A stretch of DNA of 62,700 nt, the filler included, from Nemertoderma westbladi (Eukaryota; Animalia; Xenacoelomorpha): the NCBI GenBank assembly GCA_032718475.1. It is 3 parts of 3 records of this genome, joined end to end, with 100 filler letters (N's around TTAATTAATTAA, not from the genome) between each part and the next. Parts side by side here need not be neighbours in the genome. Positions count along the whole stretch, not along the records: positions 1 to 27,423 come from JAUCBJ010001235.1; 2 more parts are not named here. The stretch is one strand, 5' to 3'. A program made the position numbers and the translations under genes. This document shows, in pieces, positions 6,915-43,555 of this stretch; the stretch's first letter is position 1, and every line of letters starts with the position of its first letter. The notes beneath the pieces were generated by a model. It saw only the letters and a program-made list of their open reading frames with translations. It was not told the DNA's origin and did no database searches.

Positions 6915-8925
6915 CCGAATTTGTATTTTGTTTTATCCTAGATTTTTAAGCTTATAGTCAATCCGTTGTGTATAGTCTAAAAACGGCTTGGGATAATGAC
7001 CCAAATGTGAATTATTTAGTTATGAAATACTCATGAGATAATACCGAATTTGTATTTTGTTTTATCCTAGATTTTTAAGCTTAGATATAGTCAATCCGTT
7101 GTGTATAGTCTAAAAACGGCTTGGGATAATGACCCAAATGTGAATTATTTAGTTATGAAATACTCATGAGATAATACCGAATTTGTATTTTGTTTTATCC
7201 TAGATTTTTAAGCTTAGATATAGTCAATCCGTTGTGTATAGTCTAAAAACGGCTTGGGATAATGACCCAAATGTGAATTATTTACTTATGAAATACTCAT
7301 GAGATAATACCGAATTTGTATTTTGTTTTATCCTAGATTTTTAAGCTTAGATATAGTCAATCCGTTGTGTATAGTCTAAAAACGGCTTGGGATAATGACC
7401 CAAATGTGAATTATTTAGTTATGAAATACTCATGAGATAATACCGAATTTGTATTTTGTTTTATCCTAGATTTTTAAGCTTAGATATAGTCAATCCGTTG
7501 TGTATAGTCTAAAAACGGCTTGGGATAATGACCCAAATGTGAATTATTTAGTTATGAAATACTCATGAGATAATACCGAATTTGTATTTTGTTTTATCCT
7601 AGATTTTTAAGCTTAGATATAGTCAATCCGTTGTGTATAGTCTAAAAACGGCTTGGGATAATGACCCAAATGTGAATTATTTACTTATGAAATACTCATG
7701 AGATAATACCGAATTTGTATTTTGTTTTATCCTAGATTTTTAAGCTTAGATATAGTCAATCCGTTGTGTATAGTCTAAAAACGGCTTGGGATAATGACCC
7801 AAATGTGAATTATTTAGTTATGAAATACTCATGAGATAATACCGAATTTGTATTTTGTTTTATCCTAGATTTTTAAGCTTAGATATAGTCAATCCGTTGT
7901 GTATAGTCTAAAAACGGCTTGGGATAATGACCCAAATGTGAATTATTTAGTTATGAAATACTCATGAGATAATACCGAATTTGTATTTTGTTTTATCCTA
8001 GATTTTTAAGCTTAGATATAGTCAATCCGTTGTGTATAGTCTAAAAACGGCTTGGGATAATGACCCAAATGTGAATTATTTAGTTATGAAATACTCATGA
8101 GATAATACCGAATTTGTATTTTGTTTTATCCTAGATTTTTAAGCTTAGATATAGTCAATCCGTTGTGTATAGTCTAAAAACGGCTTGGGATAATGACCCA
8201 AATGTGAATTATTTAGTTATGAAATACTCATGAGATAATACCGAATTTGTATTTTGTTTTATCCTAGATTTTTAAGCTTAGATATAGTCAATCCGTTGTG
8301 TATAGTCTAAAAACGGCTTGGGATAATGACCCAAATGTGAATTATTTACTTATGAAATACTCATGAGATAATACCAAATTTGTATTTTGTTTTATCCTAG
8401 ATTTTTAAGCTTAGATATAGTCAATCCGTTGTGTATAGTCTAAAAACGGCTTGGGATAATGACCCAAATGTGAATTATTTACTTATGAAATACTCATGAG
8501 ATAATACCGAATTTGTATTTTGTTTTATCCTAGATTTTTAAGCTTAGATATAGTCAATCCGTTGTGTATAGTCTAAAAACGGCTTGGGATAATGACCCAA
8601 ATGTGAATTATTTAGTTATGAAATACTCATGAGATAATACCGAATTTGTATTTTGTTTTATCCTAGATTTTTAAGCTTAGATATAGTCAATCCGTTGTGT
8701 ATAGTCTAAAAACGGCTTGGGATAATGACCCAAATGTGAATTATTTACTTATGAAATACTCATGAGATAATACCAAATTTGTATTTTGTTTTATCCTAGA
8801 TTTTTAAGCTTAGATATAGTCAATCCGTTGTGTATAGTCTAAAAACGGCTTGGGATAATGACCCAAATGTGAATTATTTAGTTATGAAATACTCATGAGA
8901 TAATACCAAATTTGTATTTTGTTTT
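6915..8925. repeat. 133-bp satellite, 15 near-identical copies plus a partial copy
   Basis: Unit starts at 6915, 7044, 7177, 7310 ... 8906. The first copy lacks 4 bp. Confidence 0.97.
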
Positions 8926-9030
8926 AATAAATAGTTTTGCTGTGTTGTGTTGTTTTAATAAATAGTGTTTTAATTGTAGTTAAATAACAATTTTTATCAA
9001 CTCAACTGGGAAATGGTAATGGGTCTTGGC

Positions 9031-9728
9031 GGTCTTACCTTTGTACTTTTTACCATTACTTTTGCTTTTGTACCAGGGGGGTCTTACTTTTGTACCAGGG
9101 GGGGTCTTACTTTTGTACCAGGGGGGTCTTTCTTTTGTACCAGGGGGGGGTCTTACTTTTGTACCAGGGGGGTCTTACTTTTGTACCAGGGGGGTCTTTG
9201 TGTACCAGGGGGTCTTACTTTTGTACCAGGGGGGTCTTACTTTTGTACCAGGGGGTCTTACTTTTGTACCAGGGGGGGTCTTACTTTTGTACCAGGGGGG
9301 TCTTACTTTTGTACCAGTGAGGGTCTTACTTTTGTACCGGGGGGGGGTCTTACTTTTGTACCACGGGGGTCTTACTTTTGTACCAGGGGGGTCTTACTTT
9401 TGTACCAGGGGGGTCTTACTTTTGTACCAGGGGGGTCTTTGTGTACCAGGGGGGGTCTTACTTTTGTACCAGGGGGGTCTTACTTTTGTACCAGGGGGGT
9501 CTTACTTTTGTACCAGGGGAGTCTTACTTTTGTACCAGTGGGGGTCTTACTTTTGTACCAGGGGGGTCTTACTTTTGTACCAGTGGGGGTCTTACTTTTG
9601 TACCGGGGGGGGGGGGTCTTACTTTTGTACCACGGGGGGTCTTACTTTTGTACCAGGGGAGTCTTACTTTTGTACCAGGGGGGGTCGTACTTTTGTAGGG
9701 TCTTAGGTCTTTGTTTTGTACACACCCC
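9031..9728. repeat. ~22-bp tandem array (TCTTACTTTTGTACCAGGGGGG) ending in a transposon-terminus-like sequence
   Basis: About 30 copies with variable G-run length, ending ...GGTCTTAGGTCTTTGTTTTGTACACACCCC. Confidence 0.85.
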
Positions 9729-9969
9729 ATCCATCGCATCGATCACATCGCATTCTGGGGTAAATCTTTTCGCCCTACGCGTAGGCCTACGCGTAGCTAC
9801 GCGTAGTTTGTAACTTCCATTCCTGTCATTTACCGGTAGGGCCAGACTTACTGCCTTTTTAACAACTAAATAAATTGGAGATGAGCTGTTGCAACTGTAA
9901 TTAAAGGTGTAATATTATGGGTTTGTTCAGAAGTGGAAAAAATGGGAGCGCGTCACCGGGGGTTGAACC

Positions 9970-10015
9970 AGCGCTATGCGCACGTTTCGGCCTAACAGGC
10001 CTCATCAGTAGCGCT
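9970..10015 (-). ncRNA. Minimal type-I hammerhead ribozyme, copy 1 (non-canonical GCA triplet)
   Basis: Minus strand AGCGCTA-CTGATGA-GGCCT GTT AGGCC-GAAA-CGTGC-GCA-TAGCGCT: 7-bp stem I, 5-bp stem II, intact CUGAUGA and GAAA boxes. Confidence 0.75.
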
Positions 10016-10309
10016 AACCAGCTCAGCCACTAGCCTCTGACACTCGCAGTCCCACCTAATCCACTTCTATTGAACGGGCAGTCTTAAGTTGCAAATATTC
10101 TATCTCTAACAGCGGACCTAACGGCCTCAAGTATGCTAGAGTGAAACAGGAGGGAAGTACAAATAAATAAATATTCAGCTCGGTATTGCTGCCAGGTGAT
10201 ATTAATTAAATAAATTGGAGATGAGCTGTTGCAACTGTAATTAAAGGTGTAATATTATGGGTTTGTTCAGAAGTGGAACAAATGGGCGCGCGTTACCGGG
10301 GGTTGAACC

Positions 10310-10355
10310 ACCGCTATACGCACGTTTCGGCCTAACAGGCCTCATCAGTAGCGCT
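10310..10355 (-). ncRNA. Minimal type-I hammerhead ribozyme, copy 2 (canonical GUA triplet)
   Basis: Minus strand AGCGCTA-CTGATGA-GGCCT GTT AGGCC-GAAA-CGTGC-GTA-TAGCGGT. The stem III region ACGUGCGU is self-complementary with two G.U pairs. Confidence 0.85.
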
Positions 10356-11126
10356 AACCAGCTCAGCCACTAGCCCCTGACACTCGCAGTCCCACCTAAT
10401 CCACTTCTATTGAACGGGCAGTCTTAAGTTGCAAATATTCTATCTCTAACAGCGGACCTAACGGCCTCAAGTATGCTAGAGTGAAACAGGAGGGAAGTAC
10501 AAATAAATAAATATTCAGCTCGGTATTGCTGCCAGGTGATATTAATTAAATATATTAAATATTAAATATCATAGGGAGGTTTTTTTCCAAGGTCGTTTCA
10601 GGTTGTCAACTTGGCAACTTCGGGCGTAGCAATTAGGCAAATAGGCATTACCGACTGTGAAAACTGAAACTGTGAACGTCGTGATTTACGGAGCCTCCTC
10701 TGAAAGAAATTAGATGTAATTCTTAAAACTTTCTAAACTTTTTGTTTGAAAAATTAAGATAATTATTGACTTTCAAACATTGAGTGAGTCAGATGGACAG
10801 ACGGACAATTCTCACAAACTAAATTCACAGACTACGTGGCTCGCCCCGCAAACAGATTAATTAATTAAACTATCGGTATGATACACAATATGGTTAACTT
10901 CAAGTTGAAACACATGGTAGTATCGTTTACATCAAGGTACCATATGGTCATTGGCTTATTTTTTAAGTTTAGTCGTTTTTTAGGAATTGATTTGAATTTT
11001 TTTTGTTCACATTTAAATAATGACCTTTGTTATCCTGCATTTTGATGCCTGCTATACGATTATAAGTAAAAAAGAAGCTTCATAACAGCTTTCCAAATAG
11101 TGACCATAATGGTTCGTGTTGGATAC

Positions 11127-13218: not shown

Positions 13219-15235
13219 TTGAATAACTGTAACTGACCTACAGTCTATAACTGTAACTGACGCGCCAGTTGAATAACTGACCTACAATATGTAACTGTAA
13301 CTGACGTGCCAGTTGAATAACTGACCTACAGTCTATAACTGTAACTGACGCGCCAGTTAAATAACTGACCTACTATATGTAACTGTAACTGACGTGCCAG
13401 TTGAATAACTGACCTACAATCTATAATTGTAACTGACGCGCCAGTTAAATAACTGACCTACAATATGTAACTGTAACTGACGTGCCAGTTGAATAACTGA
13501 CCTACAATCTGTAATTGTAACTGACGTGCCAGTTTAATAACTGACCTACAATCTGTAACTGTGACTGACGTGCCACTCGTGCCAGTTGAATAACTAACCT
13601 ACAATCTGTAACTGTGACTGACGTACCAGTTGAATAACTGACCTACAATCTGTAACTGTAACTGACGTGCCAGTTTAATAACTGACCTACAGTCTATAAC
13701 TGTAACTGACGCGCCAGTTGAATAACTGACCTACAATATGTAACTGTAACTGACGTGCCTGTTTAATAACTGACCTAACCTACAGTCTATAACTGTAACT
13801 GACGTGCCAGTTGAATAACTGACCTACAATATGTAACTGTAACTGACGTGCCTGTTTAGTAACTGACCTAACCTACAGTCTATAACTGTAACTGACGTGC
13901 CAGTTGAATAACTGACTTACAATCTGTAACTGTAACTGACCTACAATATGTAACTGTAACTGACGTGCCAGTTTAATAACTGACCTACAGTCTATAACTG
14001 CAACTGACGCGCCAGTTGAATAACTGACCTACAATATGTAACTGTAACTGACGCGCCAGTTGAATAACTGACCTACAATCTGTAACTGTAACTGACGTGC
14101 CAGTTGAATAACTGACCGAAAATCTGTAACTGTAACTGACGTGCCACTCGTGCCAGTTGAATAACTGACCTACAATCTGTAACTGTAACTGACGTGCCAC
14201 TCGTGCCAGTTGAATAACTGACCTACAATCTGTAACTGTAACTGACGTGCCAGTTTAATAACTGACCTACAATCTATAATTGTAACTGACGCGCCAGTTG
14301 AATAACTGACCCCCAATATGTAACTGTAACTGACGCGCCAGTTGAATAACTGACCTACAATCTGTAACTGTAACTGACGTGCCACTCGTGCCAGTTGAAT
14401 AACTGACCTACAATCTGTAACTGTAACTGACGTGCCAGTTTAATAACTGACCTACAATCTATAATTGTAACTGACGCGCCAGTTGAATAACTGACCCACA
14501 ATATGTAACTGTAACTGACGCGCCAGTTGAATAACTGACCTACAATCTGTAACTGTAACTGACGTGCCAGTTGAATAACTGACCTACAATCTGTAACTGT
14601 AACTGACGTGCCAGTTGAACAACTGACCTACAATCCGTAACTGTAACTGACGTGCCACTCGTGCCAGTTGAATAACTGACCTACAATCTGTAACTGTAAC
14701 TGACGTGCCAGTTTAATAACTGACCTACAATCTATAATTGTAACTGACGCGCCAGTTGAATAACTGACCCACAATATGTAACTGTAACTGACGCGCCAGT
14801 TGAATAACTGACCTACAATCTGTAACTGTAACTGACGTGCCAGTTGAATAACTGACCTACAATCTGTAACTGTAACTGACGTGCCAGTTGAACAACTGAC
14901 CTACAATCTGTAACTGTAACTGACGTGCCAGTTTAATAACTGACCTACAATCTGTAACTGTAACTGACGTGCCAGTTTAATAACTGACCTACAATCTGTA
15001 ACTGTGACTGACGTGCCAGTTGAATAACTGACCTACAATCTGTAACTGTAACTGACGTGCCAGTTGAACAACTGACCTACAATCTGTAACTGTAACTGAC
15101 GTGCCAGTTTAATAACTGACCTACAATCTGTAACTGTAACTGACGTGCCAGTTTAATAACTGACCTACAATCTGTAACTGTAACTGACGTGCCAGTTGAA
15201 TAACTGACCTACAATCTGTAACTGTAACTTACGTG
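13219..15235. repeat. 44-bp minisatellite, ~45 copies
   Basis: Unit TTGAATAACTGACCTACAATCTGTAACTGTAACTGACGTGCCAG, with recurrent variants (CTCGTGCCA insertion). Confidence 0.97.
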
Positions 15236-16389
15236 CTCCCTAGCCGTAAGAATGTGATGGCAGCCGTGTTGATAGCTCTTGTAAAGAAGTGGGATCTTTC
15301 GTAAGTCTTGATAACAATAAACTACATCTCAAACCAATCAATGTGCTATATACAAACCTAATATGGAAGGTTACTCTTACGTGTAACGTGTAGCCGTATA
15401 TAGCGATAGCTAACATTTTAGGGGTTATATCTAATAAGATCTGCCATTTACGGTCATCCACACGACTATGCCTTACCACTTTAATCCACAACTGCGGGTC
15501 ACTGATTCTTCAGAGTTCTTTGTCATAGATTTACGATGGAGGCCGTTCTTCTTTTGTTAAGACTCTTATAGTTTGTTGATAAATTGAAATAATTGATATA
15601 ATTTAATTAACCGGTTTGATTCGAGTTCTCTCAGAAGGTCTTTCTTTATTACTGACTGGTAGCTGCTGGGCCTCCGTGCCCGAGAGAGCAGATGGTGCGA
15701 ATAACTCAAGTGTTGTCTAATGCGAACTAAATCTCAACGTCCTTGTGATTGAGGTTATTCTTACAAGAGGTCTCACGATGATGCCTGACTCCAATCTGTT
15801 ACAACAGCCAACTCACAAGAGGAATTGTATAAACCTACACAAGCATATAAAATGGATCCTTGAGCCCACACATTTAATCGTCATTGTTGGTTTAACAGCA
15901 GTTAAACAGATCTATTTCCAGCGACCAACGTTAAACTAACACACAAGTGTGTTCCCGCCGCGGGCCTTATCTCTTCGCAGACACTTGGACGCCAACCTTG
16001 GCGTTCATAGGGGCATATTTGATTACAATTATACCTATATGAGATAGTATTAATCACCATCTATACTATGAGAACTACTAGAACTAATCAGTAGTATTTA
16101 TTTACTGGCGCGTAAGAACTTTATATGATTGTAGATATTCGACGAGTAGTTTTAGTGTAATAAAGGAGTCAAAATCGGTATTCCTAGAAGCCGCGTTCCA
16201 ATATTTTATTCAATATTTCAATAAATAGGAGAGATAGACAGGAGACTTCGACTTTTCTATTTTGTTGCTTTTCAATATCTGAACGAAAAAGGTAATGAAG
16301 CGAAAATTATGGAAGCTCAGCGATGAACCCAAAAGTACGGAACCTCAAAATAAGGAACATAAAAGTAATGATGATACTAAAAGAATGAA

Positions 16390-17300
16390 CTACTACTACT
16401 ACTAGTATCGGCATGCTGCATTGCAGCTGCATTTTTAAGAATGCTGTGCCGGCTTGTCAATAAAATTGCGCCGCCACAACTCCCTATCACCCATGACATT
16501 TGCTAGATCATCCGCATCTTCAAGGCCAGTGTCATTTAAGATGCGTCTCAAGAACGTCAAGGGCTGTCCACCATGCTTATTCACTCCATGAGGCTGCCAA
16601 AGTACAAGATTATGCACTGGCTGGTCCTCACGGCGAAAGCAATGTCCTGCAAAGCGGAGGCGATTTTGTTCTAGTGTCAAGCTTGGGGGAACCAATGAGA
16701 CACCTCCAATATTATATAGTGTCTGGTTGGAGATGTGTGCATTATACTTGACACAATGAACCCGGCGTAGCATTCTTGTGAATGTGCCATCCAGAGATTT
16801 GGTGTCCTCAGCAGTTAGAGCCCAGCATGGACTCCCATAGAGGAGTACTGGAACTACTGCTGCTCTAAATAATCGGACCTAAAGTTTCCGATTAATTCTC
16901 GGTGACTTCCAAATCCTGGAAAGCCCATTCAAGGCTGCCCATGCCTTTCCCTTACGTATTCGAAGGTCCTCACCTGACTTCCGGATCCATGATCCCAGGT
17001 AACAGAAGTCGTCCACATGCTCAAGCATACCATCCTTTGAGCTTATGCTCATCCGATCAGAGACTTGCTGAGAACTTTCAAAGTTAACTGTCAAAATTTT
17101 GGTCTTTCTGGAGTTAATAAAAAGACCAACACTAGAAGCAGCATGTTCTAATGAATGAGCTGAGGAGCCGTTGGGCTCCCTCTAGTGATTCTGAGAGTAC
17201 TCCTAAGTCATCAGCAAAGTCTAGATCAATTAGGTACTTGGCAGGATTTCCTCGACTTCTGGAGCCAGTAGGTGGAGTTATCATCACCCCATCATCACCA
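16390..17300 (-). mobile_element. 5'-truncated RTE-like non-LTR retrotransposon (RT C-terminal half, frameshifted)
   Basis: Nearly identical to the 3' part of the 58505-59668 copy: DFADD, YLGSWI, RLRFAGHCFR motifs and a (TAG)n tail. Confidence 0.9.
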
Positions 17301-20799: not shown

Positions 20800-22555
20800 G
20801 GTTAGGTTGATGCCGTTAATGATGCTGACGACAGCAGGCAATCATCCCAGGCATGGAAATCGATCAACTTGCTTACTGGGCGGAAAAGCCAACCAACCAC
20901 CAGGTCAAGGCAGAATCACCAGCCGATCGCCTCAATGTTGGAAGGCCCACTTTGAAAAGCTGCTCAATAATGACAGGGTATTGCCTGATAACTTTATAGA
21001 AGTAAAAGTATCTGATAGTCTGAATCTGAGTAAGAGCATTAAGACCAATCGTGCCAGTGGAGTAGATGGTGTTCTCCCCGAGGTCTTTAAAATACCTGAG
21101 TGTCTAAAGCTCATCTATCCTATCATAGTAAACATGTACTGAACAACAAGAGTCCCACAGGAAATGAAAACAAATAAGTTGGTGCCAGTTCCCAAGAAGG
21201 GCAACCTAACACTCTATGGTTCTTTTCGGAGAATCTCATTGATCTCGATTTCTGCAAAGCTATACAATATAATTCTATTTAATCGCATCAGGGATCCCAT
21301 TATTGCGAGGCTGCTCCGTGGAAATCAGAATGGGTTCCGTAAAGGTCGTGGGACCATATGGAGCCCATTTTTGCACTTAAAAGGATAATTGAAGAGTTAT
21401 CAAAAAAGAAAGACAGGCATCTGGCTGTTATCTTTGTTGACTTCTTCAAGGCCTTTGATTCAGTCTCTCGATCTCGTATGTTCAGCATACTTTCATCATA
21501 TGGGATTCCTGATGAAATTATTGCAGCAATCAGATCAGTATACGATGGTTCGACAACATTTGTGTCTTCTGTTGACGGTGACACAGAACCATTTGAAGTG
21601 TTATGGGGCGTCCTCCAGGGAGACACACTTGCACCATTCTAATAATTGCGGTTGACTATGTTCTACGCATGCACTTAGATCATCACAATGATGATGGGGT
21701 GATGGTAACTCCACCTACTGGCTCCAGAAGTCGAGGAAATCCTGCCAAGTATCTAACTGATCTAGATTTTGCTGATGAATTAGGATTACTCTCAGAATTA
21801 CTAGAGGGAGCCCAACGGCTCCTCAACTCATTAGAACATGCTGTTTCTAGTGTTGGTCTTTTTATTAACTCCAAAAAGACCAAAATTCCTCAGCAAGTCT
21901 CTGACCGGATGAGCATAAGCTCAAAGGATGTTATACTTGCTCATGTGACGACTTCTGTTACCTAGGACCATGGATCCGGAAGTCAGGTGAGGACCTTCGA
22001 ATACGTAAGGGAAAGGCATTCCAGGCTTTCCAGGATTTGGAAGTCACATAGAATTAATAGTAAACTTAAGGTCCGATTATTTAGAGCAGCAGTAGTTCCA
22101 GTACTCCTCTATGGGAGTCCATGCTGGGCTCTAACTGCTGAGGACAACAAATCTCTGGGATGGCACATTCACAAGAATGCTACGCCGGGTTCACTGTGTC
22201 AAGTACAATGCAGACATTTCCAACCAGTCACTAATATAACATTGGAGGTGTCTCATTGGTTCCCCCAAACTTTACACTAGAACAAAGCCGCCTCCGCTTT
22301 GCAGGACATTGCTTTCGCCGTGAGGAACAGCCGGTGCATAATCTTGTTCTTTGGCAGCCTCATAGAGTGAATAAGCATGGTGGACAGCCCATGACATTCT
22401 TGAGACGCATCTTATAGAACACTGGCCTTGAAGATACGGATGATCTAGCAAATGTCATGGGTGATAGGGAGTTGTGGCGGCGCAATTTTGTCGACAAGCG
22501 GGACAGCATTCTTAAAAATGCAGCTGCAATGCAGAATTCTGATCCTAGTAGTAGT
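20800..22555 (+). mobile_element. Degenerate RTE-like non-LTR retrotransposon (RT, multiple frameshifts)
   Basis: PVPKKG, QNGFRKGR, FVDFFKAFDSV, GVLQGDTLAPF and DFADE motifs across fragmented ORFs; short (TAG)n tail. Confidence 0.9.
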
Positions 22556-23045
22556 TCGTGGCTCGCCCCATAGTGATACCTGTATGCTAAGCTCGCATAC
22601 TTTTGTGGCTCACCCCATAGTGGTACCTGTATTCTATGCTCGCATACTTTCGTGGCTTGCCCCATAGTGGTACCTGTATACTAAGCTCGCATACTTTCGT
22701 GGCTTGCCCCATAGTGGTACCTGTATACTAAGCTCGCATACTTTCGTGGCTTGCCCCATAGTGGTACCTGTATGCTAAGCTCGCATACATTCGTGGCTTG
22801 CCCCATAGTGGTACCTGTATGCTAAGCTCGCATACTTTCGTGGCTCGCCCCATAGTGGTACCTGTATACTAAGCTCGCATACTTTTGTGGCTCACCCCAT
22901 AGTGGTACCTGTATTCTAAGGTCGCATACTTTCGTGGCTCGCCCCATAGTGGTACCTGTATGCTAAGCTCGCATACTTTCGTCGCTCGCCCCATAGTGGT
23001 ACCTGTATGCTAAGCTCGCATACTTTCGTCGCTCGCCCCATAGTG
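22553..23045. repeat. 47-bp tandem repeat, ~10 copies
   Basis: Unit TAGTGGTACCTGTATGCTAAGCTCGCATACTTTCGTGGCTTGCCCCA. Confidence 0.95.
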
Positions 23046-24908
23046 TGTTATTCGTGGTACGTATTGAACCGGATCATTTTAGAAAATATTAGAAATTTAG
23101 ATCTTGGCTGAAAGATCACACTTTTGAAGGTATGGGGCAGGGGCATGGCCTACTTAAATATTTACGTAGGCCAGGTATGGGGTTTATCGAGGTCGCTGAT
23201 CACGGTAAAACTTTTTAAACAGATTTTCTGATAATGCAACCATGATTTTTGGTGCAATTGTGGTGCTTCACGATGAAAAGTACGTTTGTATTTCAAACTG
23301 TTAAATTTTGCCTTTGGTTGGGTAATTCTTATTAAAGTTTCTGAGAATATTCTAATGATTTTTGATATTCGAATATTGTTAAAGCATTAGAATATTCGAG
23401 CACTAAATTACATAAGTTGAAAAAAATCACTAAAAATGACAAATAGATTGTTAACTTAATCAGTGAGATTTACTTAACAAATTATGTTTACTTATTATTA
23501 TTATTGTACTGTATAAGCGCCTACTGTAAAAATATTATAATATTAATATACTTAAAGTATCAACAAAATATTCGATTATTTTTGTGACGAATATTCGAAT
23601 TAGAGAACTTCCTTTCTCAGAAACTGAAATTCTCATTATTTTTGTTTTTTTTTGTTCCCCAGGGGGTACATTCGAAATTATTAAAACATTTTGCGAATGT
23701 TATATTTGAATTCTATAATCGTGATCAGATTCCAAAAAACCTCTATATACCGCAAATATAATTTTATTTCAGCGAGCAATAAACATTTTTTGACAATTTT
23801 AGCATATAAAAAATATTGCAGATGGGTGCCAGAATGAGAGAATAAGAGACAAAATGTAACAAGCTTGCCGGTGTAATAAATTGGCGTCTGCGCTGTTGCA
23901 TAGTCCATTCAATTTGATGAAAAGTGACGAAAACTCGGTTTTTCCAATAAAGCTGGCCCGAAGATACAGATAATGAATTACAAAAACGTTCTTAAATGAT
24001 CACCCCCCCCCCCCCCCCCCCCCATCTGTACTATAAGTAATGTAAAGGCTTTCTCAAGGTCAATCAATGCTTGACATTTTAAAACTGTTTAGAAAAATTA
24101 AGAGGAAAATATTTTTATCTCGTATCGTATAATAAGAATAATTAATTCTCGTATTTCGATTCATATTTTCGAATCAATAGATATATATTTATTGGGTGAT
24201 ATTGTAAAACATTGAACCCAATTAACTTTATGGTGCAACGGGAAAATCCGCTCTGGGAAGAAAATAAATAAATATAGAAACCGCAAGGTGGCGTCATGAA
24301 AATGAAGTTTCATATCACTGCTTAATAATAAGGTCAATCAACAAGAAGTTAAACAATCTATTCGGCTTCTTGACAGCCGATAACTTATTATAACCCTTCG
24401 GATAAATTAATTAATTTACACCAAAACCTTTTCTTCCTCCAAAAATTATAATGTTTATCGGAAAAATACGTAATGATGTTTAAGAATAATTGGGGTCAAA
24501 AAATATAAAAAAAATTTTATACCCGTTTCTTGTAGCAAATTTTATGGAGATTTCAAATCTGTAAACAGTTTATTTCTAGTTTGTCTAGTTTTCGAGTTAT
24601 GGCTCATTATATAGACACGCATCCTGAAAATTATTTGAAAAAAATGACAAAAATTAACAAAATTTCCGGCTTGTTGCACTGAAATCATTGTATTGGCTAA
24701 TAAGTTATTACAGGTTGGAATGTATTTTAGCGGGAAGTTTAAAACGAGAATTTGCACATTGTTATGTTTTAGTTACTAACTGTATGCTGTATTGGTGTTT
24801 CAATCAATGCAATCAGCAGTTTTGACGGACACAGACTATAGAGCGTCCTCCATCTTCGAATCGAAAATTGTACATACATCGTTGACGATATAATTTTTAT
24901 AATACAGT

Positions 24909-26594
24909 ATGCCACGAATAACTCAACAACGGAAAGCAGGATTTCGAGGAACCACGAAACAAGATACCGGTACATTGAACCTCGCGCATATGAAATCGAT
25001 TTCAGTACCGGTACCGGTAGTGCCAAAAGATCGAGAACCGTCGCTAATAGCATCGAATCTGAATGTCCTACCCTCAGATGGAAAGTTGGAGGGATATAAC
25101 GTTGTAGCAACGCAAATAATAAAGAAACTGATAATGGAGAAACATGATGATAAGCAATGTGACGGTACAGTAGTGATAAATGAGTCACATCGTGGTTATA
25201 GTACCAATTTTGAGGGGAAATGTTCACGTTGTGATTGGCAATATTCTACTTTCACGAGCGACCAAGTTTCTCGAACTGAACCTCGTCCTGGAAGAAAAAC
25301 AGCGGATGTGAATCTTCGTGCAGTACTGGCTTGGCTTTGTGTTGGTGGGACCCATGGTGATGCAGAGACGTTTTCTAGAATAATGTCACTACCATCTCCT
25401 GTTGCGAAGAGAGCCTGGCAATTTCATGTCAACGAAATCTCGAAGGTCACGGAATCACTTGCACGAGGAAATGCAAAAAATTGTGCAATGAAAGAGATTG
25501 ACAGGGAAATATGTATATCTTTTGACGGTACATGGATGAAAAGAGGCCATCAATCACTTTATGGTGCCGCGTTTATCATATCCGAAAATACAGGACATGT
25601 CATTGATTTCGATGTTTGTTCAAAATACTGTAATATTTGTAGCCGCAACAAAGAAGAAGATGGCAATGCTGATCATGAGTGTAATATAAATTATTCAGGG
25701 TCCAGTTCAGGTATGGAACCTCATTTAGCTGTTAAACTATTCAATAGATCCCTATCAAATAATGGTGTCATATATCAATCAATGGTATCGGATGGCGACA
25801 GCAGCGTTATGAAGAACATATTGGAGTCCGATCCTTACAGAGAGCAGAATGTAACAGTGCAGAAGAAAGAGTGCCTGAACCACGTTGCGAAGCGTCTATA
25901 TACAGGTCTTTCCAATGCTCGCAAAACTCATAAACTTGGAGGCAAGGGAGGGTTGACTGATAGTCGATGTCACCAATTGCAGTCATATTACCGAAATACG
26001 ATCGTGAAGAATATAGGAGATGTTGATATAGATAAACTCTCAGAGACTGAAAAATCAGTGCTCATAAGCACGATTCGAAGTGAAATCGTGGCTGCAACAC
26101 ATCACTATTGTGATTATGGAGATAATGTTGAGAAACAACATGAGTTATGCCCTGAAAATAAGTGGTGTAAATTCAAAAACAATGCTATAAGTTACAAAAA
26201 TGTAACATTTATAAAAGAGGCAAACATGAAGTTTATTTTACCTGTTTATGAACGCCTAACAACGAGCGAAATTCTGGAACGCTGTATCCCTGGCCTCACA
26301 CAAAATCCGAACGAATCTCTGCATTCACGGCTATGGACTCGTCTATCTAAAGAAACGTTTGTGGGTCTAAGTACACTCATGTTTCATGTTTCGTATACTG
26401 TTTTAGTTCACAATCGGGGGTGTTCAGCAGAACAGATAATTTTGAAGAAGCTTGGCCTTGAGGAAGATGATGGTGACCTTGCAGAACGAGCAAAGAAGGT
26501 CAACCTAAAACGTAAACAGAAAAGTACTGAACACAAACCATCAAAGAAATGGCAAGCACCCGATCATAAGTCATATAAATCTGGGGCCTTTTAA
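24909..26594 (+). CDS. Intact DDE transposase, 561 aa (Mutator-like/Kolobok-related family)
   Basis: Family motifs ISFDGTWMKRGH.S.YG, SKYC..C, HEC..NYSGSS..ME, SDGDSS, KKECLNH..KR, TQNPNES. Uninterrupted single ORF. Confidence 0.85.
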   Translation: MPRITQQRKAGFRGTTKQDTGTLNLAHMKSISVPVPVVPKDREPSLIASNLNVLPSDGKLEGYNVVATQIIKKLIMEKHDDKQCDGTVVINESHRGYSTNFEGKCSRCDWQYSTFTSDQVSRTEPRPGRKTADVNLRAVLAWLCVGGTHGDAETFSRIMSLPSPVAKRAWQFHVNEISKVTESLARGNAKNCAMKEIDREICISFDGTWMKRGHQSLYGAAFIISENTGHVIDFDVCSKYCNICSRNKEEDGNADHECNINYSGSSSGMEPHLAVKLFNRSLSNNGVIYQSMVSDGDSSVMKNILESDPYREQNVTVQKKECLNHVAKRLYTGLSNARKTHKLGGKGGLTDSRCHQLQSYYRNTIVKNIGDVDIDKLSETEKSVLISTIRSEIVAATHHYCDYGDNVEKQHELCPENKWCKFKNNAISYKNVTFIKEANMKFILPVYERLTTSEILERCIPGLTQNPNESLHSRLWTRLSKETFVGLSTLMFHVSYTVLVHNRGCSAEQIILKKLGLEEDDGDLAERAKKVNLKRKQKSTEHKPSKKWQAPDHKSYKSGAF

Positions 26595-27423: not shown

Positions 27424-27523
27424 NNNNNNNNNNNNNNNNNNNNNNNNNNNNNNNNNNNNNNNNNNNNTTAATTAATTAANNNNNNNNNNNNNNNNNNNNN
27501 NNNNNNNNNNNNNNNNNNNNNNN
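27424..27523. other. Artificial assembly linker (N44-TTAATTAATTAA-N44)
   Basis: 12-mer with stops in all six frames between two 44-N runs; an identical structure occurs at 57330. Confidence 0.97.
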
Positions 27524-27661
27524 ACACACATCAAGAATGCTACTAGAAAGAAAAACGATACAACAAATTACAGAGGAATTTCAATCTCATCAATCTTCGT
27601 CAAGCTGTGGGAAATTGTAGTTCTGAGCGAATTCACTCGAGAAGCAACTAGCCATCTCCAA

Positions 27662-28954
27662 ATGGCATACAAGAAAGGAATCAATGGAGAAATCCCCTAC
27701 ATGGTAGCCAATAAACTAATTAAGCGTTTTAATGCAGGTGGCTCAGACGTCCACGTGCTCTCAATAGACTTATCTGCGGCTTTCGACTGCGTAAACCACA
27801 AATCTCTCTTTAGTAAGCTTAGGGAAACAAATATCGATAAACCCTGGTTACAACTACTCGAATCACTCTACAAAAAATCTACAGCTTATGTAAGAACAGG
27901 ACGACGTTTATACACACAATCAATCAAACTATCCAAAGGCGTAAGACAAGGGGGAGTATTATCTGCCTGGCTCTTTAATTTTTATCTAAAAGAATTATTC
28001 GTCAACATAGAATCATTAGGATTAGGTATACACATCAACAAGCACTCCTACCCTATAATTGGGTATGCAGATGACATACTGCTTCTAGCAAACCTAAAGA
28101 GCGATCTACAGAAGTTAACAACAGTCTGTACTACCTACTTCTCTGCACATGGCCTAAAAGCGAACCCAACAAAATCCCATTATGTTATCTGCTCACCAAC
28201 AACAAAGACAACCACTAAACAAACCCTGAAAGTTGGTCACACTACCCTAGAACACGAAAATAGTTGTCGATACCTAGGACTGCCCTTCCCCTTAACTCAG
28301 GACAGCCTAAAAGACAACTTCGTCAAAAGGTGCTGGTGGAATGTGGCGCGATTAAAGAACCGGGGGTTATCAACTTCTGATGTGCCCCTGATAGTTACGA
28401 AGACCATATGGAAAACCATTTGCACCCCATCAATCCTATATGGAACAGCAAATTACACAGATGCTATCACCAACGATTTTGAAGTCTTTTTTCGAAAGGC
28501 TATGAGATCAATATTAGGTGTCAAAAACTACGTATCAAACAATACCCTGTACCTTCTCCTAGGACAAGAAACCCTATCATCCCTAGTGGCATACAACAAA
28601 TGTAGGATCATATACAGTGCTTTCAACTCTCGCAATCCAAAAATAATATACCTCTTCGCCTGGCTTCTAGCGCAGCATAGCCTTAATATATATAAAGACC
28701 CCCTATTTGATGACTACAACGCTGCGTCGTGGATTTACGGACTACCATGCATAACCAGCCTAGTAACGGCATCCTACAGCACCAAACATACCATAAAGAA
28801 TGCGAAAGAACGCAACAAGCCAACAGCCAAATATAAGGACATTTTCAATGCGCTGTTTTTAAATAGTATCCTAAACAACATCAACTCAGAAAACCACGTA
28901 AGGCATGAATGTATCCTTGATTTTTATGGAATCGAAAAATCAACCACACAATAA
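27662..28954 (+). CDS. Reverse transcriptase of a 5'-incomplete non-LTR retrotransposon (CR1/L2-group-like)
   Basis: IDLSAAFDCVNH, GVRQGGVLS, YADD and YLG motifs; 3' UTR ending in (TGAA)n at ~29113-29127. Confidence 0.85.
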   Translation: MAYKKGINGEIPYMVANKLIKRFNAGGSDVHVLSIDLSAAFDCVNHKSLFSKLRETNIDKPWLQLLESLYKKSTAYVRTGRRLYTQSIKLSKGVRQGGVLSAWLFNFYLKELFVNIESLGLGIHINKHSYPIIGYADDILLLANLKSDLQKLTTVCTTYFSAHGLKANPTKSHYVICSPTTKTTTKQTLKVGHTTLEHENSCRYLGLPFPLTQDSLKDNFVKRCWWNVARLKNRGLSTSDVPLIVTKTIWKTICTPSILYGTANYTDAITNDFEVFFRKAMRSILGVKNYVSNNTLYLLLGQETLSSLVAYNKCRIIYSAFNSRNPKIIYLFAWLLAQHSLNIYKDPLFDDYNAASWIYGLPCITSLVTASYSTKHTIKNAKERNKPTAKYKDIFNALFLNSILNNINSENHVRHECILDFYGIEKSTTQ

Positions 28955-32775: not shown

Positions 32776-34410
32776 CTACTTAATAGGATGCTGGTTGATG
32801 CCATTGAATCTCTTACCTTTATTGTAACTAAATTCCCTATTATGGAACTCCATACCTTGCGGCAGATCGCCTATGTCAGCACTACTGTGTCTGTCTAATC
32901 TACAACCTCTACCGTAATATCTACGCGCATTATACCTACTATTGCTGGATGTTTGGGACTTTCCTCCCCCGTAACCCGATGTCTCTCCACTCCTGACGCC
33001 ACTAACCACGCCATCGCCGCAATACCGCTCCCACGGGCGGTCAGCGTTGTTATTGTCGTCGTTAGTTGGAAGGTCCGACTGCGGTCTGCACGGACGGGAA
33101 TGTCCCGGGTTCCAGTGACGTCGGGACCCGCGGAGACTCGCGTTGGGAGGGCCCCAGCGGGGCGGGGCGGGGTCCCTTGGGTGTCCTCCGCGTCTGTACC
33201 CATCGCGTTCGGAACGTGGCTGTAGGCCAGTCTCTACGTGCCGGAATGCATCCGGCGCACTAACACCGTAGCTGCGGCCGCCCATTAATGGGTGCGATAC
33301 AGGAGATTCTACATCAACATAGTTCGATGGGAACCGTTCGTATGATTCTTTGCGTTGTGAGTTATTGTGATGATGTCTTTGTCTTCTATGACGCCATGAG
33401 TTATCGCAGTGGCGTATCGATTTGTTAGATATTATTGTTCCTTCCCGCGGAATCGATTTCCCCTCATTTACCCCAGATTTAACCCCGTTAGAGCGACGGG
33501 ATTTCCGCGCCGTGAACTTCCCGGCGCATTCGATCGGACAATCCTCGAGGACACCCCCGTTAGCCGCGGGATCCCCGCCCTCCAGCGACTCGCACTCTTC
33601 CCGACTACTACCACGACTAACGATCACAACGTTATCCGGGACCGGAGTCGCTCTCGTTATAAGGAACTTATTGCGCTGCTCGTCCACATCGATGATACCC
33701 CCTTTAGCCATCTGATACGCCCATTTATCCGCCATTTTATCTCGGAACCCCGCGATCTCATCCGGTATAACCAACTCGTTACAACTCCCGTCCTCCGAAG
33801 AGTCGCTAATTTCTCGAAACTCCGAAATTAAACTTTCCAAGAAGTGGCCCTCCAGAGTTTCACGGCAAACTGGACAACAACATCCAACTGGTTCTGTCAT
33901 CTCATCGCCGCTGTCGGCCTGCGTCGCAGTCTGTGAGACCGAGACGTAGGAATACAAACACTTGCCATGGAAATAATGCAAGCAATCTGTCAACCAAACG
34001 CCGTCCTTTTTATCGAGATCCTCCAAACATATCGCGCAATCTCCCACAGGTACATTATTTTCTTCGAGGTAGTTTTTCACGATTTCTATAACGTTATAAA
34101 CAACTGGATCTCCGATTTGTGATTCAGTTTCGTTTGCCAATATTTTATTTAAACTGTCGACTTGTGATTCAGAAAGACCCCGCGGTTGTACGATACTAAC
34201 AGTTGCCGGTACACTGGGATACTTAGGGGATAAAAATATCTTGAGATTTAATTGAACGTAACTGACCTCGCAACAAGTCGCCGAAACATCCTGAATAGGT
34301 AAGGCTATATTTAAAACAGTTCCATTATTTAATTTATTAACAATTAAGTTACTTCCATAAATAGATTGCAAAATCTCGAGTTCTTCTTCGTAATCGTTAT
34401 TAATCGACAT
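32776..34410 (-). CDS. RNF25: E3 ubiquitin ligase RNF25-like (RWD + RING-H2 + disordered C-terminus), intronless, ~544 aa
   Basis: RWD: EELEILQSIY, YPSVP, PRGLS, GDPVVY..IE. RING-H2: CAIC..CLHYFH..C..CPVCR. KGGIIDV..E.NKFL follows the RING. The first ATG is at 34410; the track start at 34446 is TTG. Confidence 0.85.
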   Translation of the reverse strand: MSINNDYEEELEILQSIYGSNLIVNKLNNGTVLNIALPIQDVSATCCEVSYVQLNLKIFLSPKYPSVPATVSIVQPRGLSESQVDSLNKILANETESQIGDPVVYNVIEIVKNYLEENNVPVGDCAICLEDLDKKDGVWLTDCLHYFHGKCLYSYVSVSQTATQADSGDEMTEPVGCCCPVCRETLEGHFLESLISEFREISDSSEDGSCNELVIPDEIAGFRDKMADKWAYQMAKGGIIDVDEQRNKFLITRATPVPDNVVIVSRGSSREECESLEGGDPAANGGVLEDCPIECAGKFTARKSRRSNGVKSGVNEGKSIPREGTIISNKSIRHCDNSWRHRRQRHHHNNSQRKESYERFPSNYVDVESPVSHPLMGGRSYGVSAPDAFRHVETGLQPRSERDGYRRGGHPRDPAPPRWGPPNASLRGSRRHWNPGHSRPCRPQSDLPTNDDNNNADRPWERYCGDGVVSGVRSGETSGYGGGKSQTSSNSRYNARRYYGRGCRLDRHSSADIGDLPQGMEFHNREFSYNKGKRFNGINQHPIK

Positions 34411-34920
34411 AGCGAAACATTTAGAAATTGTTTGATGTTGAAACAATCATTGATAACGCTGAAACAACTCATTCAGTCATTGAAACCTGTAGGCTATATC
34501 CAGATATCAGTAGGCCCTACCTGGTACCGGTACCGGCAGTACGGTGCAGCATTCAGCTATTGGCTTTGTACTAGGGTTTTTAAAAAACATCATTTTAAAA
34601 ATCTGTGATGTTTTAATTGTTTTTTTTGTTTTTTAAAATGTTTTTTTTGTTTTAAATGTTTTTTTTGTTTTTTTTTCTAAACAAGGTATTTCTCCGATAA
34701 ACAATATATTTTGAGTTGCTGTAGAGGATAGGCCTAGTACTTTTCTATCTTTAAAGTTAACATAGGTCGTACATAGGCCTACAGGCCTACTATGTGACAA
34801 AGCCAGAGCACATAACTTCTTCAAATACAGTCCGACAGTGCAAACAGACTACCTATCAGCCTATAATACTGTCTGACTGTTAACCAGTCCAGTCCAGTCC
34901 CAGTTAACCAAAAGATATAA

Positions 34921-36341
34921 TAGGATGGCTAAAACGTCTGTCCTTATCTGATCTGATCTGATCTGACGGTATCTGACACTTGTTCCACCTTGGTTCAGAG
35001 CCCACCTTGGTGTAGTGGTTATATTGAATTCACATCTCACGGAAGTTGTGGGTTCAACCCCGGCATGGGGGCCAAGGTAGTTTTCGTTTCGTCACGAATG
35101 CTTTGAAGGGTTTAGCGAGGCATCTCTGCCTTGCATCATTAAATGGTAGCTAAATGAGTACTGGAGTTTCTGCCCATGTCAGTCAATCTCAATATAACAC
35201 CCCCCCCCCCCCCCCCCCCCCCCCTCTCTCTGAAACTAATGCTACTAACTAAAAGACTAACTGGAACTAACTAAAAGGAATTCATATAAAATAAGCTAGA
35301 AATTTTAATCTTGTTTTTAGCGGCGGGTGCCAAATTTTGGTGCCAGCCCCAAATTTTGAAATATTTCAATTTTGTAAATTAATTATTTGAAGCTGTTTTT
35401 TCCGCAATAGGTGTTTTAGGCGTTCTAGTCTCGTTGGAATATATATGAATTGCAACAACTAGGCCTATGGGGTTTCTTGCGTTATACGGATTTGTGAGGG
35501 TTCGGAATTCAATGGAATGTGTAAAAATTGCATAAGAATTCTGAAACTTGTATTTTTCGGCGATGGGTGAAAATTTTCAACAACATCGTTTATTGTTTTG
35601 GTTAGAAATTGTCGCCGCTGTAACCTGCTCTTTTCCTTCAATTGGAAGGTAAAAACATCGTTTGATTCCCACCTTCCCACTCACCTTCCCATCTTCCTTC
35701 ATTGTCTGGGCATAATAAACTCCACTGTATCAGTGGCAATCAGGGCAATATGGGGAATGTTAAAGTGTTTCGCCATATTCGGCAGTAACAGTACTGTACA
35801 GAGTTACTGTACCTCTTCCTGCCTTCCCTTTAGCATAACAAACAAACAATAAATATTTTAAATGTAATATACTAATAAGCACAATATCATTATTTAATAA
35901 TATTAATTATAATTAATATAATTAACTTTAACTATTAATAAACTATTAACAAGAAAGATTACTAAAATATTGCAGCAAAGGCAGAAAGGCTGTATTGTTT
36001 TTAATAAATGATTAATGTTTCAACACCAACTACATCTGCGAAAGTTGTTTACATCTGAAACAACTATCCATCCATCTTTGCTGGGGCAATCACACAACTT
36101 TATACCCGCCATCCTTCATCCTACTGTATATCGCATTTTTAACATGCCTTTGCTGCCTTGGCTGCATACCGGTATGCCTGAAGGCCTACTGCTATGTTAT
36201 ATGATGATACTGATACGTAACATATGGCAACCTGATCCCCTATTGGCTATTTACTTATATCTCTTTCTCCTGATTGGTTATATGATCAGATGCCGTCAGA
36301 TCAGATCAGATCAGATAAGGACAGACGTTTTATTCTACCTC
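34921..36341. mobile_element. Mutator-like non-autonomous element nested in the hAT element
   Basis: ~55-bp TIR containing TAAAACGTCTGTCCTTA(TCTGA)n; 9-bp TSD AAGATATAA (34912-34920, 36342-36350). Confidence 0.8.
34999..35172 (+). mobile_element. tRNA-derived SINE (3'-truncated)
   Basis: A box TGGTGTAGTGG, B box GGTTCAACCC, then the core shared with 54-155. Confidence 0.75.
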
Positions 36342-39607: not shown

Positions 39608-41423
39608 ATGGCTTACGGAGGATTAGAAGAAGATCTGTTACTAGGAGACACAGATACCCCAACTGTATCGTTTAGAGAACAACCTATTTCTGGTGAGCGT
39701 CTAGGTCGTAGACTATTTTCTGATCCAGGTACATGCGAATTCTATAGTAAATAGAATTAATGATAACAATAATACTCACATATTTGTAAAACCAAGTAAA
39801 TATAGTGGTGATAAAACTCTCCCAGGGGATACTGATGTACCACCCGTGGACGTATAGTTAGGAAGTTTTGAGCGGGCCGCAATAGCAAACAATTGGTCTT
39901 TAGGTAAATGTACAACAGTTTTATCAGGATATTTAGAGGGAAAAGCGGGCAGATGGTACGACCAAAATATCGGGCGTTTGGAGTTACTTCCCTTCCAGGA
40001 ACTTAAACAACAATTGTTGTTACGTTTTAGCCATGGTGAGAGTCAAACTTATTATTATACAATTTTTTCAGCTATGAAACAGGAAACGGATGAGAGTGTA
40101 GACGATTTTTATGAAAGACTTATGCAAGTGGCAAAGCGTGCATTAAGTACTAGTAATAGTAGAGATATGCGAATTCGAGTGAGAGATAGATTTTTACATG
40201 GTTTACAGAAGGTAATTTTATCTAGAGTGAGTGAGAAAGTCAAAGCAACGGATGACTTAGATTCTGTGGTTGCTATAGCGCGGCACATAGAGCAAAGTGT
40301 GAGGCTTGAAAACCCAAACTTGTCCTTGCCACTGACTCGAGCAGATTTGGACCAGGTATTCAATCCCAATACAGTAGTAAGCAGTTATAGAGAAACTAAT
40401 AGAGATCAAGCTAATAAGGATAGTAATTCCCAGTCTTTAACTCACCGACTTGCAAATTTAGAAACGGCAGTTGACAAACTTGTAACTGAACTAGACCGGC
40501 AAACAGTAGGTCCCTTAGCACAAAATAATAAGGCAACTATCGTTTGTGACATTTGTTTTAAAGCTGGCCATAAAACTATCGATTGCTTTCGGCATCCAAA
40601 CCGGCAAAATCAACATTTATCTTATTATCCACCACCGCCAAGATTTAACCGTTTTAATGGCCACAGTAGTAATCCAAGTGGGGTAAACAGGGGACAAAGT
40701 AATTTTCAACAAAATTACAACGGCCATCCGCAGCAACACCAGCTTTATAATAGTTATTCTCCTGTTGATTCACGCAATGAGTATTATCAATCTGAATCTA
40801 GACCTTATTATAACAGAAATACCGATAGAAATATATCACACCAAAATAATGGTAATAATAGGAATTATACAGTACACCCCAGTGATAATACAATAAGAAA
40901 CACAACTCCAATACATAATCAAAATACATCACCAGTTGGTAATCCTACATTTTTCCCAAGCAACAGGCATCCCCCACCGTCATCTTTCAATAATAAGACT
41001 GTAATAGTGAATTTTACTGAAACACCCCCTCATGATATGTTCCTTGACGTAATTTTAGAGGGCCGTTATATTGAGTCAGGTGTCGTAGATACAGGCGCCC
41101 AAACTACTATGATTAGCGAACGATTGCTAAATAAAGTACAACCGGGTACAGTAATTGAACCAATTGGAATATATCTACGGGATTTTGTGGGAACGACCAT
41201 CCCTATTTTAGGTGCCGTTTGGTTAAACATTGAAGCGGGAGGGCGTACAGCGTTGGTTCGTGCTTTAGTTGCCAAAGAGTTAGAGTGTAATTCTGGAATT
41301 ATTTTGGGCTTGAGAACATTAGGTGCATTACGTGTACATATTAACTGCAGTGAGAGAAAAGTATTTCAGGAAGCAGTAAGTCAATTAGGAAGAGACAGAA
41401 CCTATTATTGCCCAGGAAATTAA
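39608..41423 (+). pseudogene. Gypsy gag-protease (5' part disrupted)
   Basis: LEGKAGRWY, zinc knuckle CDICFKAGHKTIDC, aspartic protease VDTGA; stops upstream of 39978. Confidence 0.85.
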
Positions 41424-42137
41424 TTCACCACCTTTACTTAGTAATACAAACCTCTTTTCACCCAATTATGTTAATTCTCCATCAACAAACGCTAAAGTAG
41501 TTGCGCAAGAAAATAGTGAGCCTAATACAAGCACGAGCAGTGAACATAAAAATAATACTACCAAGCATTTACACGTCTTCCGTGTTGTCGCCGATCGAAA
41601 TATTTTAATTCCACCAAGCCACGAAGCTATAGTACATGGTCGACCAGTTGGTGTGGCATTAGAATGTAGGCCTAAGTCTAAGTCTAATGTAGTGGTAGGC
41701 TTATTTGAACCGAATGCAACTGGCTTAGGTAAGAATGGCTTGATAGGAGCTCGTACACTAAATACAGTAGACCAGGGTCTTATTTTGTGTCGCATTATGA
41801 ATCCCAACAATAAGCGAATAATTCTTCAAAAGAATAGTCGAATAGGTGATCTGAAATAATAAATACTTCTACACCGAATGTAAATAAATTTGACTCACCA
41901 ACTGACCCTGATGCGGACATAATATCTAAATTCCCTACTTTAGAAGACGACACACACACTAGAGCTTTACATGACGTCCTACTTAAGCACTTTAATGTAA
42001 TATCTAATAACGATTATGATGTAGGATATTGTGACTTAATTTCGCATGAAATTGATGCTGATGGGCCTCCCATTCGTCAGAGACCGTACCGTATACCATA
42101 CAAACACCGTGATTTCGTTGATGAAACCATTAAGACG

Positions 42138-43433: not shown

Positions 43434-43555
43434 AACCTGACTCTAACCCCATTACTGTAAATGTCATACGTGCTGGGCATGAAACTGAAAGGAGACCAAA
43501 GGAAAACAATAATTGTAAGAGTGCATGGCTATTAGCCATCGCAACCGATCCCACA

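Follow-up and report, generated by a model that had tools for sequence, protein, structure and literature searches.

We interpret, with moderate confidence, a short segment of Nemertoderma westbladi DNA as an insertion of two damaged copies of an abundant non-coding animal repeat whose family probably acts as a self-promoted non-LTR retrozyme, with a predicted cut that falls between A box and B box of its own promoter. The segment lies within the 62,700-nucleotide stretch that was analysed as a whole (the window). Its units combine a D-arm motif of tRNA origin with a hammerhead ribozyme motif, the family occurs in high copy number and head-to-tail, and hammerhead core, stem I and a T6 run are kept in other copies.

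TRF reported a period of 340 with 2.0 copies and a 98% match over 9867-10556, and the insertion comprises 2.02 head-to-tail 340-bp units; no further copies were found within the window. We named the unit upstream on the transcribed (minus) strand copy A and the downstream unit copy B; six differences separate them, all within the tRNA-like/hammerhead cassette. On the minus strand the cassette of both copies reads A box, type I hammerhead, B box, CCCA and T-run, with 60 nt from A-box start to B-box start. The tandem 340-bp units and the minus-strand motifs quoted for them in a first-pass annotation are all present, and the features are as follows.

9867..10552, minus strand: whole insertion, 2.02 units of 340 bp, with TAAATA (on the plus strand) at both ends
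10207..10546, minus strand: copy A; hammerhead core intact, a single mismatch in stem I (10311), T-run interrupted at 10279
9867..10206, minus strand: copy B; all 7 bp of stem I present, T6 intact, core position 16.1 (9978) occupied by C; predicted non-cleaving
10391..10415 (copy B 10051-10075), minus strand: 5' arm of the enclosing long helix, upstream of the tRNA-like +1
near 10376, minus strand: predicted Pol III +1
10349..10376 (copy B 10009-10036), minus strand: tRNA-like 5' half (about tRNA positions 1-29) with the D-arm motif
10358..10369 (copy B 10018-10029), minus strand: A box, some bases of which are predicted to form distal helix I together with the B box
10310..10355 (copy B 9970-10015), minus strand: type I hammerhead
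10349-10355 with 10310-10316, minus strand: hammerhead stem I, copy A
10342-10348, 10329-10341 and 10325-10328, minus strand: CUGAUGA, stem II and GAAA, copy A
10318-10325, minus strand: 2-bp stem III with near-palindromic 4-nt loop, copy A
10318 and 10317, minus strand: U16.1 and A17, copy A; predicted cut between 10317 and 10316
10299..10309 (copy B 9959-9969), minus strand: B box / T-loop motif
10265..10286 (copy B 9925-9946), minus strand: CCCA as tRNA-like 3' end, the T-run at 10277-10282, and the enclosing helix's 3' arm
9937..9942, minus strand: T6 of copy B, predicted Pol III terminator; neither unit has another run of at least 4 T on its transcribed strand

Two details can be added to the earlier description. 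The TTTTTT said to follow a copy is present at 9937-9942, in the lower-coordinate copy B; copy A reads TTTGTT. The T/C difference between the copies had been recorded without the remark that it falls on the conserved U16.1. At the insertion no clear target-site duplication was found, the only 6-base match being also the unit's own continuation. The upstream junction (10543-10570) carries short imperfect TTAAATA repeats, possibly from template slippage, and a 22-bp satellite array starts 170 bp from the element.

With descriptors composed after the sequence had been seen, an A box and a strict B box 30-100 nt apart occurred in none of 50,000 dinucleotide-shuffled versions of the unit and in none of 50,000 of its 124-nt core, and with a looser B box in 11 of 50,000 and 0 of 50,000, respectively; the type I hammerhead descriptor, composed in the same manner, matched 1 of 20,000 shuffles and, within the whole window, copy A alone, copy B failing it. 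A chance origin of the boxes and the hammerhead is excluded. The cassette has the layout of a Pol III type 2 promoter, that is A and B boxes at a workable spacing, tRNA-like ends and a T-run. Furthermore, the D-arm motif of the window retrieved 23 loci from the viral collection: genes for tRNA-Asp, -Val, -Asn and -Ile account for 22, with the motif at D-arm register, and the last is a tRNA truncated by the contig end. This sequence comparison points to a tRNA origin of the D-arm motif, and the earlier view of a tRNA-like cassette is supported at family level, the hammerhead occupying the place of the anticodon arm and variable loop.

A functional tRNA gene, with a cloverleaf including acceptor stem and anticodon arm, was rejected: ARAGORN found no tRNA at default settings, nor at the 100% and 90% thresholds, and its calls at 80% were accompanied by a spurious opposite-strand call. 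A tRNA-Phe parent was likewise set aside. A second search pattern retrieved tRNA-Phe at 7 of 8 genome loci and at 9 of 37 viral ones, an outcome selected for by the CTGANGA within the pattern; against 72 tRNAs from the retrieved loci, a pattern-biased set, Asp, Ile and Val score above Phe overall, so that the isotype of the parent is not assigned. The tRNA-Phe anticodon loop does match the hammerhead CUGANGA box, which leads us to speculate that tRNA and hammerhead may have been fused via the anticodon loop. Another pair of A and B boxes, either tRNA-like or the head of a SINE, lies at 35000-35070 (plus strand), about 550 bp upstream of an RNF25-like ORF; its 11-base B box is identical to that of the cassette, it is without a hammerhead, and ARAGORN makes no call there.

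Copy A has all elements of the hammerhead core (CUGANGA, GAAA, U16.1-H17, stems I-III), whereas copy B has C at 16.1 (9978). In hammerhead chemistry, U16.1 is required opposite A15.1. The locus is therefore predicted to cut once, in copy A only, without monomer release, and the earlier claim that cleavage at consecutive hammerheads would free a 340-nt monomer fails here. The type I assignment itself stands for copy A. U16.1 is retained in a contig of sequencing run X1. The Rfam search that had been suggested as a check gave no match at gathering score over the element; the best match, to Hammerhead_3, scored 20.6-20.7 bits where 48.5 is the cut-off (one overlapping clan match omitted).

In the fold constrained to the hammerhead, stem I is extended, beyond a bulge of 4 nt, by a helix of A-box and B-box bases (10365-10360 with 10304-10309). 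Such a modelled distal helix is consistent with the canonical type I layout, described as one where loop 1 meets loop 2 (PMC4209133). Stem III and loop 3 pair with themselves at -10.8 kcal/mol, a value that would allow cleavage as a dimer; a palindromic stem III/loop 3 is described for dimer-cleaving animal hammerheads (PMC4209133). In addition, an inverted repeat encloses the cassette: 4 and 2 of 3,000 shuffles pair equally well, and the 166-nt enclosing region outfolds all but 1 and 0 of 500 shuffles. As its 5' arm lies upstream of +1, the enclosing helix can exist only in read-through or circular RNA. The cost of adopting the monomeric hammerhead fold falls from 6.1 kcal/mol in a 100-nt RNA to 2.6 with the flanking helix for the X1-type form, and from 15.2 to 9.0 for copy A. 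The modelled helix thus favours the longer RNA. The hammerhead fold is never the minimum-energy one, lying about 2-15 kcal/mol above it (copy A 5-15) by energies that exclude tertiary loop contacts, and the pairing probability of stem I is 0.00-0.26. Folding of the circular monomer is unremarkable, being equalled by 41 of 200 shuffles (z -0.7).

To place the locus within its family, four of nine sequencing runs (X1-X4) were compared, with copy A plus flank as reference. None of the nine is recorded as RNA; X1 had been labelled 'RNA?' by guess, and X2-X4 are three DNA-type runs from two samples. Matching contigs numbered 1,909 in X2, 1,101 in X3 and 971 in X4, with identities from at least 99% (491 contigs in X2) to below 90%. 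Summed depth, which cannot be read as copy number, was 1.6e4-2.9e5 over the unit and about 200-500 on most of the flank in X2-X4, with a KLHL18 exon at about 20 as single-copy comparison. We infer hundreds to thousands of copies. Head-to-tail joints, going back by one unit, were seen in X2 and X3, which with the contig counts supports a high-copy family with tandem units. Divergent partial copies inside 2-3-kb contigs are dispersed, and at least 4 opposite-strand joints among those listed represent inverted copies. In X1 a single 371-nt contig consists of a 341-nt unit plus a 30-nt overlap, with core, stem I and T6 all intact together.

At 10311 and 10279, nearly all of the depth carries bases that restore stem I and the T-run, respectively, and no variant is listed at U16.1 (10318); the damage in copies A and B is therefore local. 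Removal of 6 flank differences and 4 found in copy A only from 32 variant rows left 22 for a test of constraint. None of the 22 listed variants breaks core, stems or boxes, against 2.5 under random placement (P 0.067); with the flanking helix counted, 0 of 22 compares with 4.0 expected (P 0.01). These values are subject to a 5% listing threshold, the use of contigs rather than reads, shared descent and constraints chosen by the analyst, and variant 10329, turning the conserved G10.1-C11.1 pair into G-U, was scored as tolerated. The listed variants sit in loop 2, loop 3, an A-box purine position and linkers. The sole A-box variant listed (10362) stays in the consensus and also, within distal helix I, replaces a predicted G-U pair with A-U; a common variant at 10321 makes stem III/loop 3 a perfect palindrome. 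A statement that GUAC is the majority form of loop 3 was dropped: it has 72-93% of summed unitig depths, yet the X1 consensus carries the letter of the window.

Whether the X1 contig might be a circular RNA was also considered and rejected. This run covers the RTE LINE at a depth of about 113 and other repeats, but not the KLHL18 exon, and its element-to-LINE depth ratio is about 0.05 compared with 0.05-0.09 in the DNA runs. X1 is not distinguishable from low-coverage DNA, and since it tracks DNA proportions, its circular contig is explained by a consensus of tandem DNA.

According to the retrozyme reading that we prefer, TFIIIC and Pol III would initiate near the first base of the cassette; most transcripts would end at T6 (about 100 nt) and a fraction would read through into the next unit, which has no other T4 run. 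In this longer RNA, the flanking helix and A-box/B-box pairing would favour the hammerhead fold, and the hammerhead would cut after A17, either as monomer or, via the self-complementary stem III, as dimer. Cut units are predicted to close into circles. The linear unit would begin with the B box and end with the A box and, because the cut lies between the boxes, only the circle or its more-than-unit, tandem copies would restore the promoter. A borrowed reverse transcriptase, most likely that of a Penelope-like element, would paste the tandem copies; RtcB ligation and Penelope-like mobilisation have both been proposed for retrozymes (PMC7229834; bioRxiv 10.64898/2026.07.22.740005). At this locus, a Pol III RNA of about 440 nt would extend from copy A to the T6 of copy B and be cut once, in copy A.

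The T6 is the weak link: it sits at the position of a tRNA terminator, is kept in the family and opposes multimeric Pol III RNA, and because it follows the cassette, monomers need Pol III read-through. The earlier Pol III model was right about the A and B boxes but did not address that T6 would end the transcript at about 100 nt unless read through. By analogy with human cells, read-through past T6 is plausible. A human reporter study describes unstructured tracts as terminating well only from 7-8 U (10.1101/2020.09.11.294140), and read-through of hundreds of bases is reported as common in human cells (10.1101/2025.10.17.683076). The same reporter study describes upstream structure as strengthening shorter U tracts (10.1101/2020.09.11.294140), which counts against read-through here. 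Of nine Xenopus retrozyme dimers, one was described as cleaved in vitro (bioRxiv 10.64898/2026.07.22.740005), an analogous case that would also count against our interpretation. The opposite-strand joints resemble the inverted copies of Penelope insertions (PMC8557442).

An ordinary promoterless non-LTR retrozyme, transcribed by read-through from outside and retaining the boxes as relics of a captured tRNA or SINE for their pairing as distal helix I, appears unlikely. It would account for A-box and B-box sequences pairing in the predicted hammerhead fold and for a T6 that would stop Pol III multimers but not those of Pol II, and it agrees with a review stating that animal retrozymes seem promoterless and use read-through (PMC7761336). 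However, non-pairing positions are also kept, namely G18 and G19 of the A box (loop-1 bulge), the GGG...CCCA ends and the T6 after CCCA, and the lone listed A-box variant (10362) remains within the consensus. The tRNA-gene-like layout, with a terminator straight after CCCA that is kept in the family, would suit a short Pol III RNA gene, which makes a tRNA-like RNA of about 100 nt ending at T6, perhaps self-nicking once, and spreads at the DNA level without a circle, by unequal crossing-over or as passenger of another element. We consider this very unlikely: the flanking helix, which is beyond chance, needs sequence upstream of +1 that is absent from the 100-nt transcript, the hammerhead fold is less favoured in the short RNA, and the divergent copies are dispersed in 2-3-kb contigs.

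We give hardly any credence to the unit being the pseudo-LTR of a Penelope-like element, with the locus a 5'-truncated partial tandem, even though pLTRs are described as bearing type I hammerheads and as related to retrozymes (PMC4209133; bioRxiv 10.64898/2026.07.22.740005) and opposite-strand joints are present. The linkage to GIY-YIG that had been put forward for checking was not seen within the window: the domain occurs in 0 of the 11 ORFs scanned (LINE ORF 27476-28954 left out) from 58 ORFs of at least 100 aa, no Penelope partner was found, and there is no RT plus GIY-YIG ORF beside the repeat, nor any ORF of at least 100 aa between 9813 and 12905. Moreover, most of the loose ends listed run into the next unit or into variants, and the hammerhead is canonical, not minimal. 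Finally, the damage in both local copies and a constraint that reaches only P 0.067 when the helix is left out would fit an inert satellite descended from such an element and presently inactive; this is the most improbable reading, given the 491 contigs of at least 99% identity in X2 alone and the X1 contig in which core, stem I and T6 are intact together.

Among described systems, the Schistosoma repeats Sm-alpha and Sj-alpha are alike in combining a tRNA-derived repeat with a hammerhead, in tandem and with apparent Pol III transcription (PMC6765202, PMC2770079), such that an upstream unit would transcribe the next one; the parent is described as tRNA-Gln (PMC2770079). These SINE-like retroposons come closest among the precedents. 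They differ in having the promoter first and then the hammerhead, by the order in a review legend (PMC6765202), whereas here the hammerhead lies between the boxes and no complete promoter is found upstream of it. Compared by description, the distal helix predicted from the boxes and the T6 after the cassette are features of this element. Metazoan non-LTR retrozymes (PMC7229834; bioRxiv 10.64898/2026.07.22.740005) share, as far as the available accounts go, tandem 150-450-bp units with GC below 50% (45% here) and a type I hammerhead with short stem III in non-coding DNA, with no LTR, PBS or PPT seen, and differ in being described as seemingly promoterless (PMC7761336). The family consists of non-coding, multi-copy tandem units within these limits of size and GC and probably belongs among the non-LTR retrozymes; the resemblance to retrozymes and Sm-alpha noted in the first-pass annotation is supported at the family level. 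The locus itself lacks the two consecutive complete hammerheads by which Li et al. define an 'active' element (bioRxiv 10.64898/2026.07.22.740005), while the circular X1 contig suggests that the family has them. Penelope pLTRs (PMC4209133, PMC8557442) are alike in the type I hammerhead, palindromic loop 3 and tandem plus inverted arrangements; the element differs in having no linked RT/GIY-YIG ORF in the window, in its tRNA boxes and in its canonical instead of minimal hammerhead. Helenus tRNA-box TRIMs (Kojima 2024, PMC10886601) are likewise non-autonomous and hold an A box and a B box, both conserved, within a degenerate tRNA, but they have LTRs and a PBS, and the available description includes no ribozyme (PMC10886601).

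Searches with a hammerhead-plus-B-box pattern yielded 2 viral and 62 metagenome loci, 0 of them with type I stems plus A box, in collections that hold little animal DNA, so that the lack of relatives says little; the three pattern loci having an A box are intron-bearing tRNA-Phe genes. Non-autonomy and conserved A and B boxes are also shared with tRNA-derived SINEs, whose tRNA head is unbroken and not directly followed by a terminator, and which carry a 3' tail. In the metagenome contigs L004, L011, L015, L020, L027 and L056, a T-loop-like motif comes after hammerhead-like CUGANGA, stem II and GAAAC motifs. The setting resembles a tRNA, and by script it has neither a eukaryotic A box nor type I stems; judged from their sequence, these motifs may belong to an element akin to a ribozyme or an intron within tRNA arrays of prokaryotes or phages.

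In the literature covered, which lacked most subscription papers and Repbase/Dfam entries, we found no account of a hammerhead placed inside the interval from A box to B box. The combination of promoter and hammerhead is already known from schistosomes; what seems new here is the position of the hammerhead, and of its predicted cut, between the boxes. Since animal retrozymes are said to be promoterless and their mode of transcription is open, a family with a box-wrapped ribozyme makes the question directly testable. Such a family would also be expected to select inherently for intermediates that are circular or longer than one unit, an inferred and unproven step of the retrozyme cycle. More tentatively, and with clear doubt, the cassette could be a chimera of tRNA gene and hammerhead in which the same 100 bases act as promoter, ribozyme and switch. 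As DNA, the A and B boxes would recruit Pol III, and as RNA they would pair as the distal helix of the ribozyme; a leaky T6 would give both short RNAs, in which the ribozyme is mostly off, and read-through RNAs, in which the flanking helix turns it on; and the cut between the boxes would let only circularised RNA pass the promoter to its copies. If true, the cassette would parallel in nature the circular RNA systems that have been engineered from Pol III, ribozyme and RtcB.

The rest of the window is repeat-rich animal DNA with RNF25- and KLHL18-like ORFs and pieces of Gypsy, LINE and Mutator elements. The RNF25-like ORF at 32776-34446 (minus strand) has 556 unbroken codons and 29-33% identity to named relatives, and the KLHL18-like exon at 61935-62591 (minus strand) reaches up to 60%. 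A Mutator-like transposase ORF lies at 24903-26594 and a Gypsy gag-pol in pieces at 39858-44694 (both plus strand). The RTE-like LINE (Pfam RVT_1; RTE label by the analyst) occurs at 57800-59665, 16389-17297 and 21440-22555, with a summed depth of 1-2.6e6 compared with about 20 for single copy and 3' ends that run into (AGT)n; two further LINE pieces are found at 48057-51123 and 27476-28954 (minus strand). A 315-bp tandem dimer (97%) at 51090-51683, with a partial copy at 1073-1200, contains in each unit two occurrences of a 12-base motif (4 exact matches, 0.04 expected), which we take to resemble a CTCF site. Satellites are present at 6915-8926 (133 bp, 15 copies, 99%), 9065-9697 (22 bp), 13230-15236 (44 bp) and 22555-23045 (47 bp).
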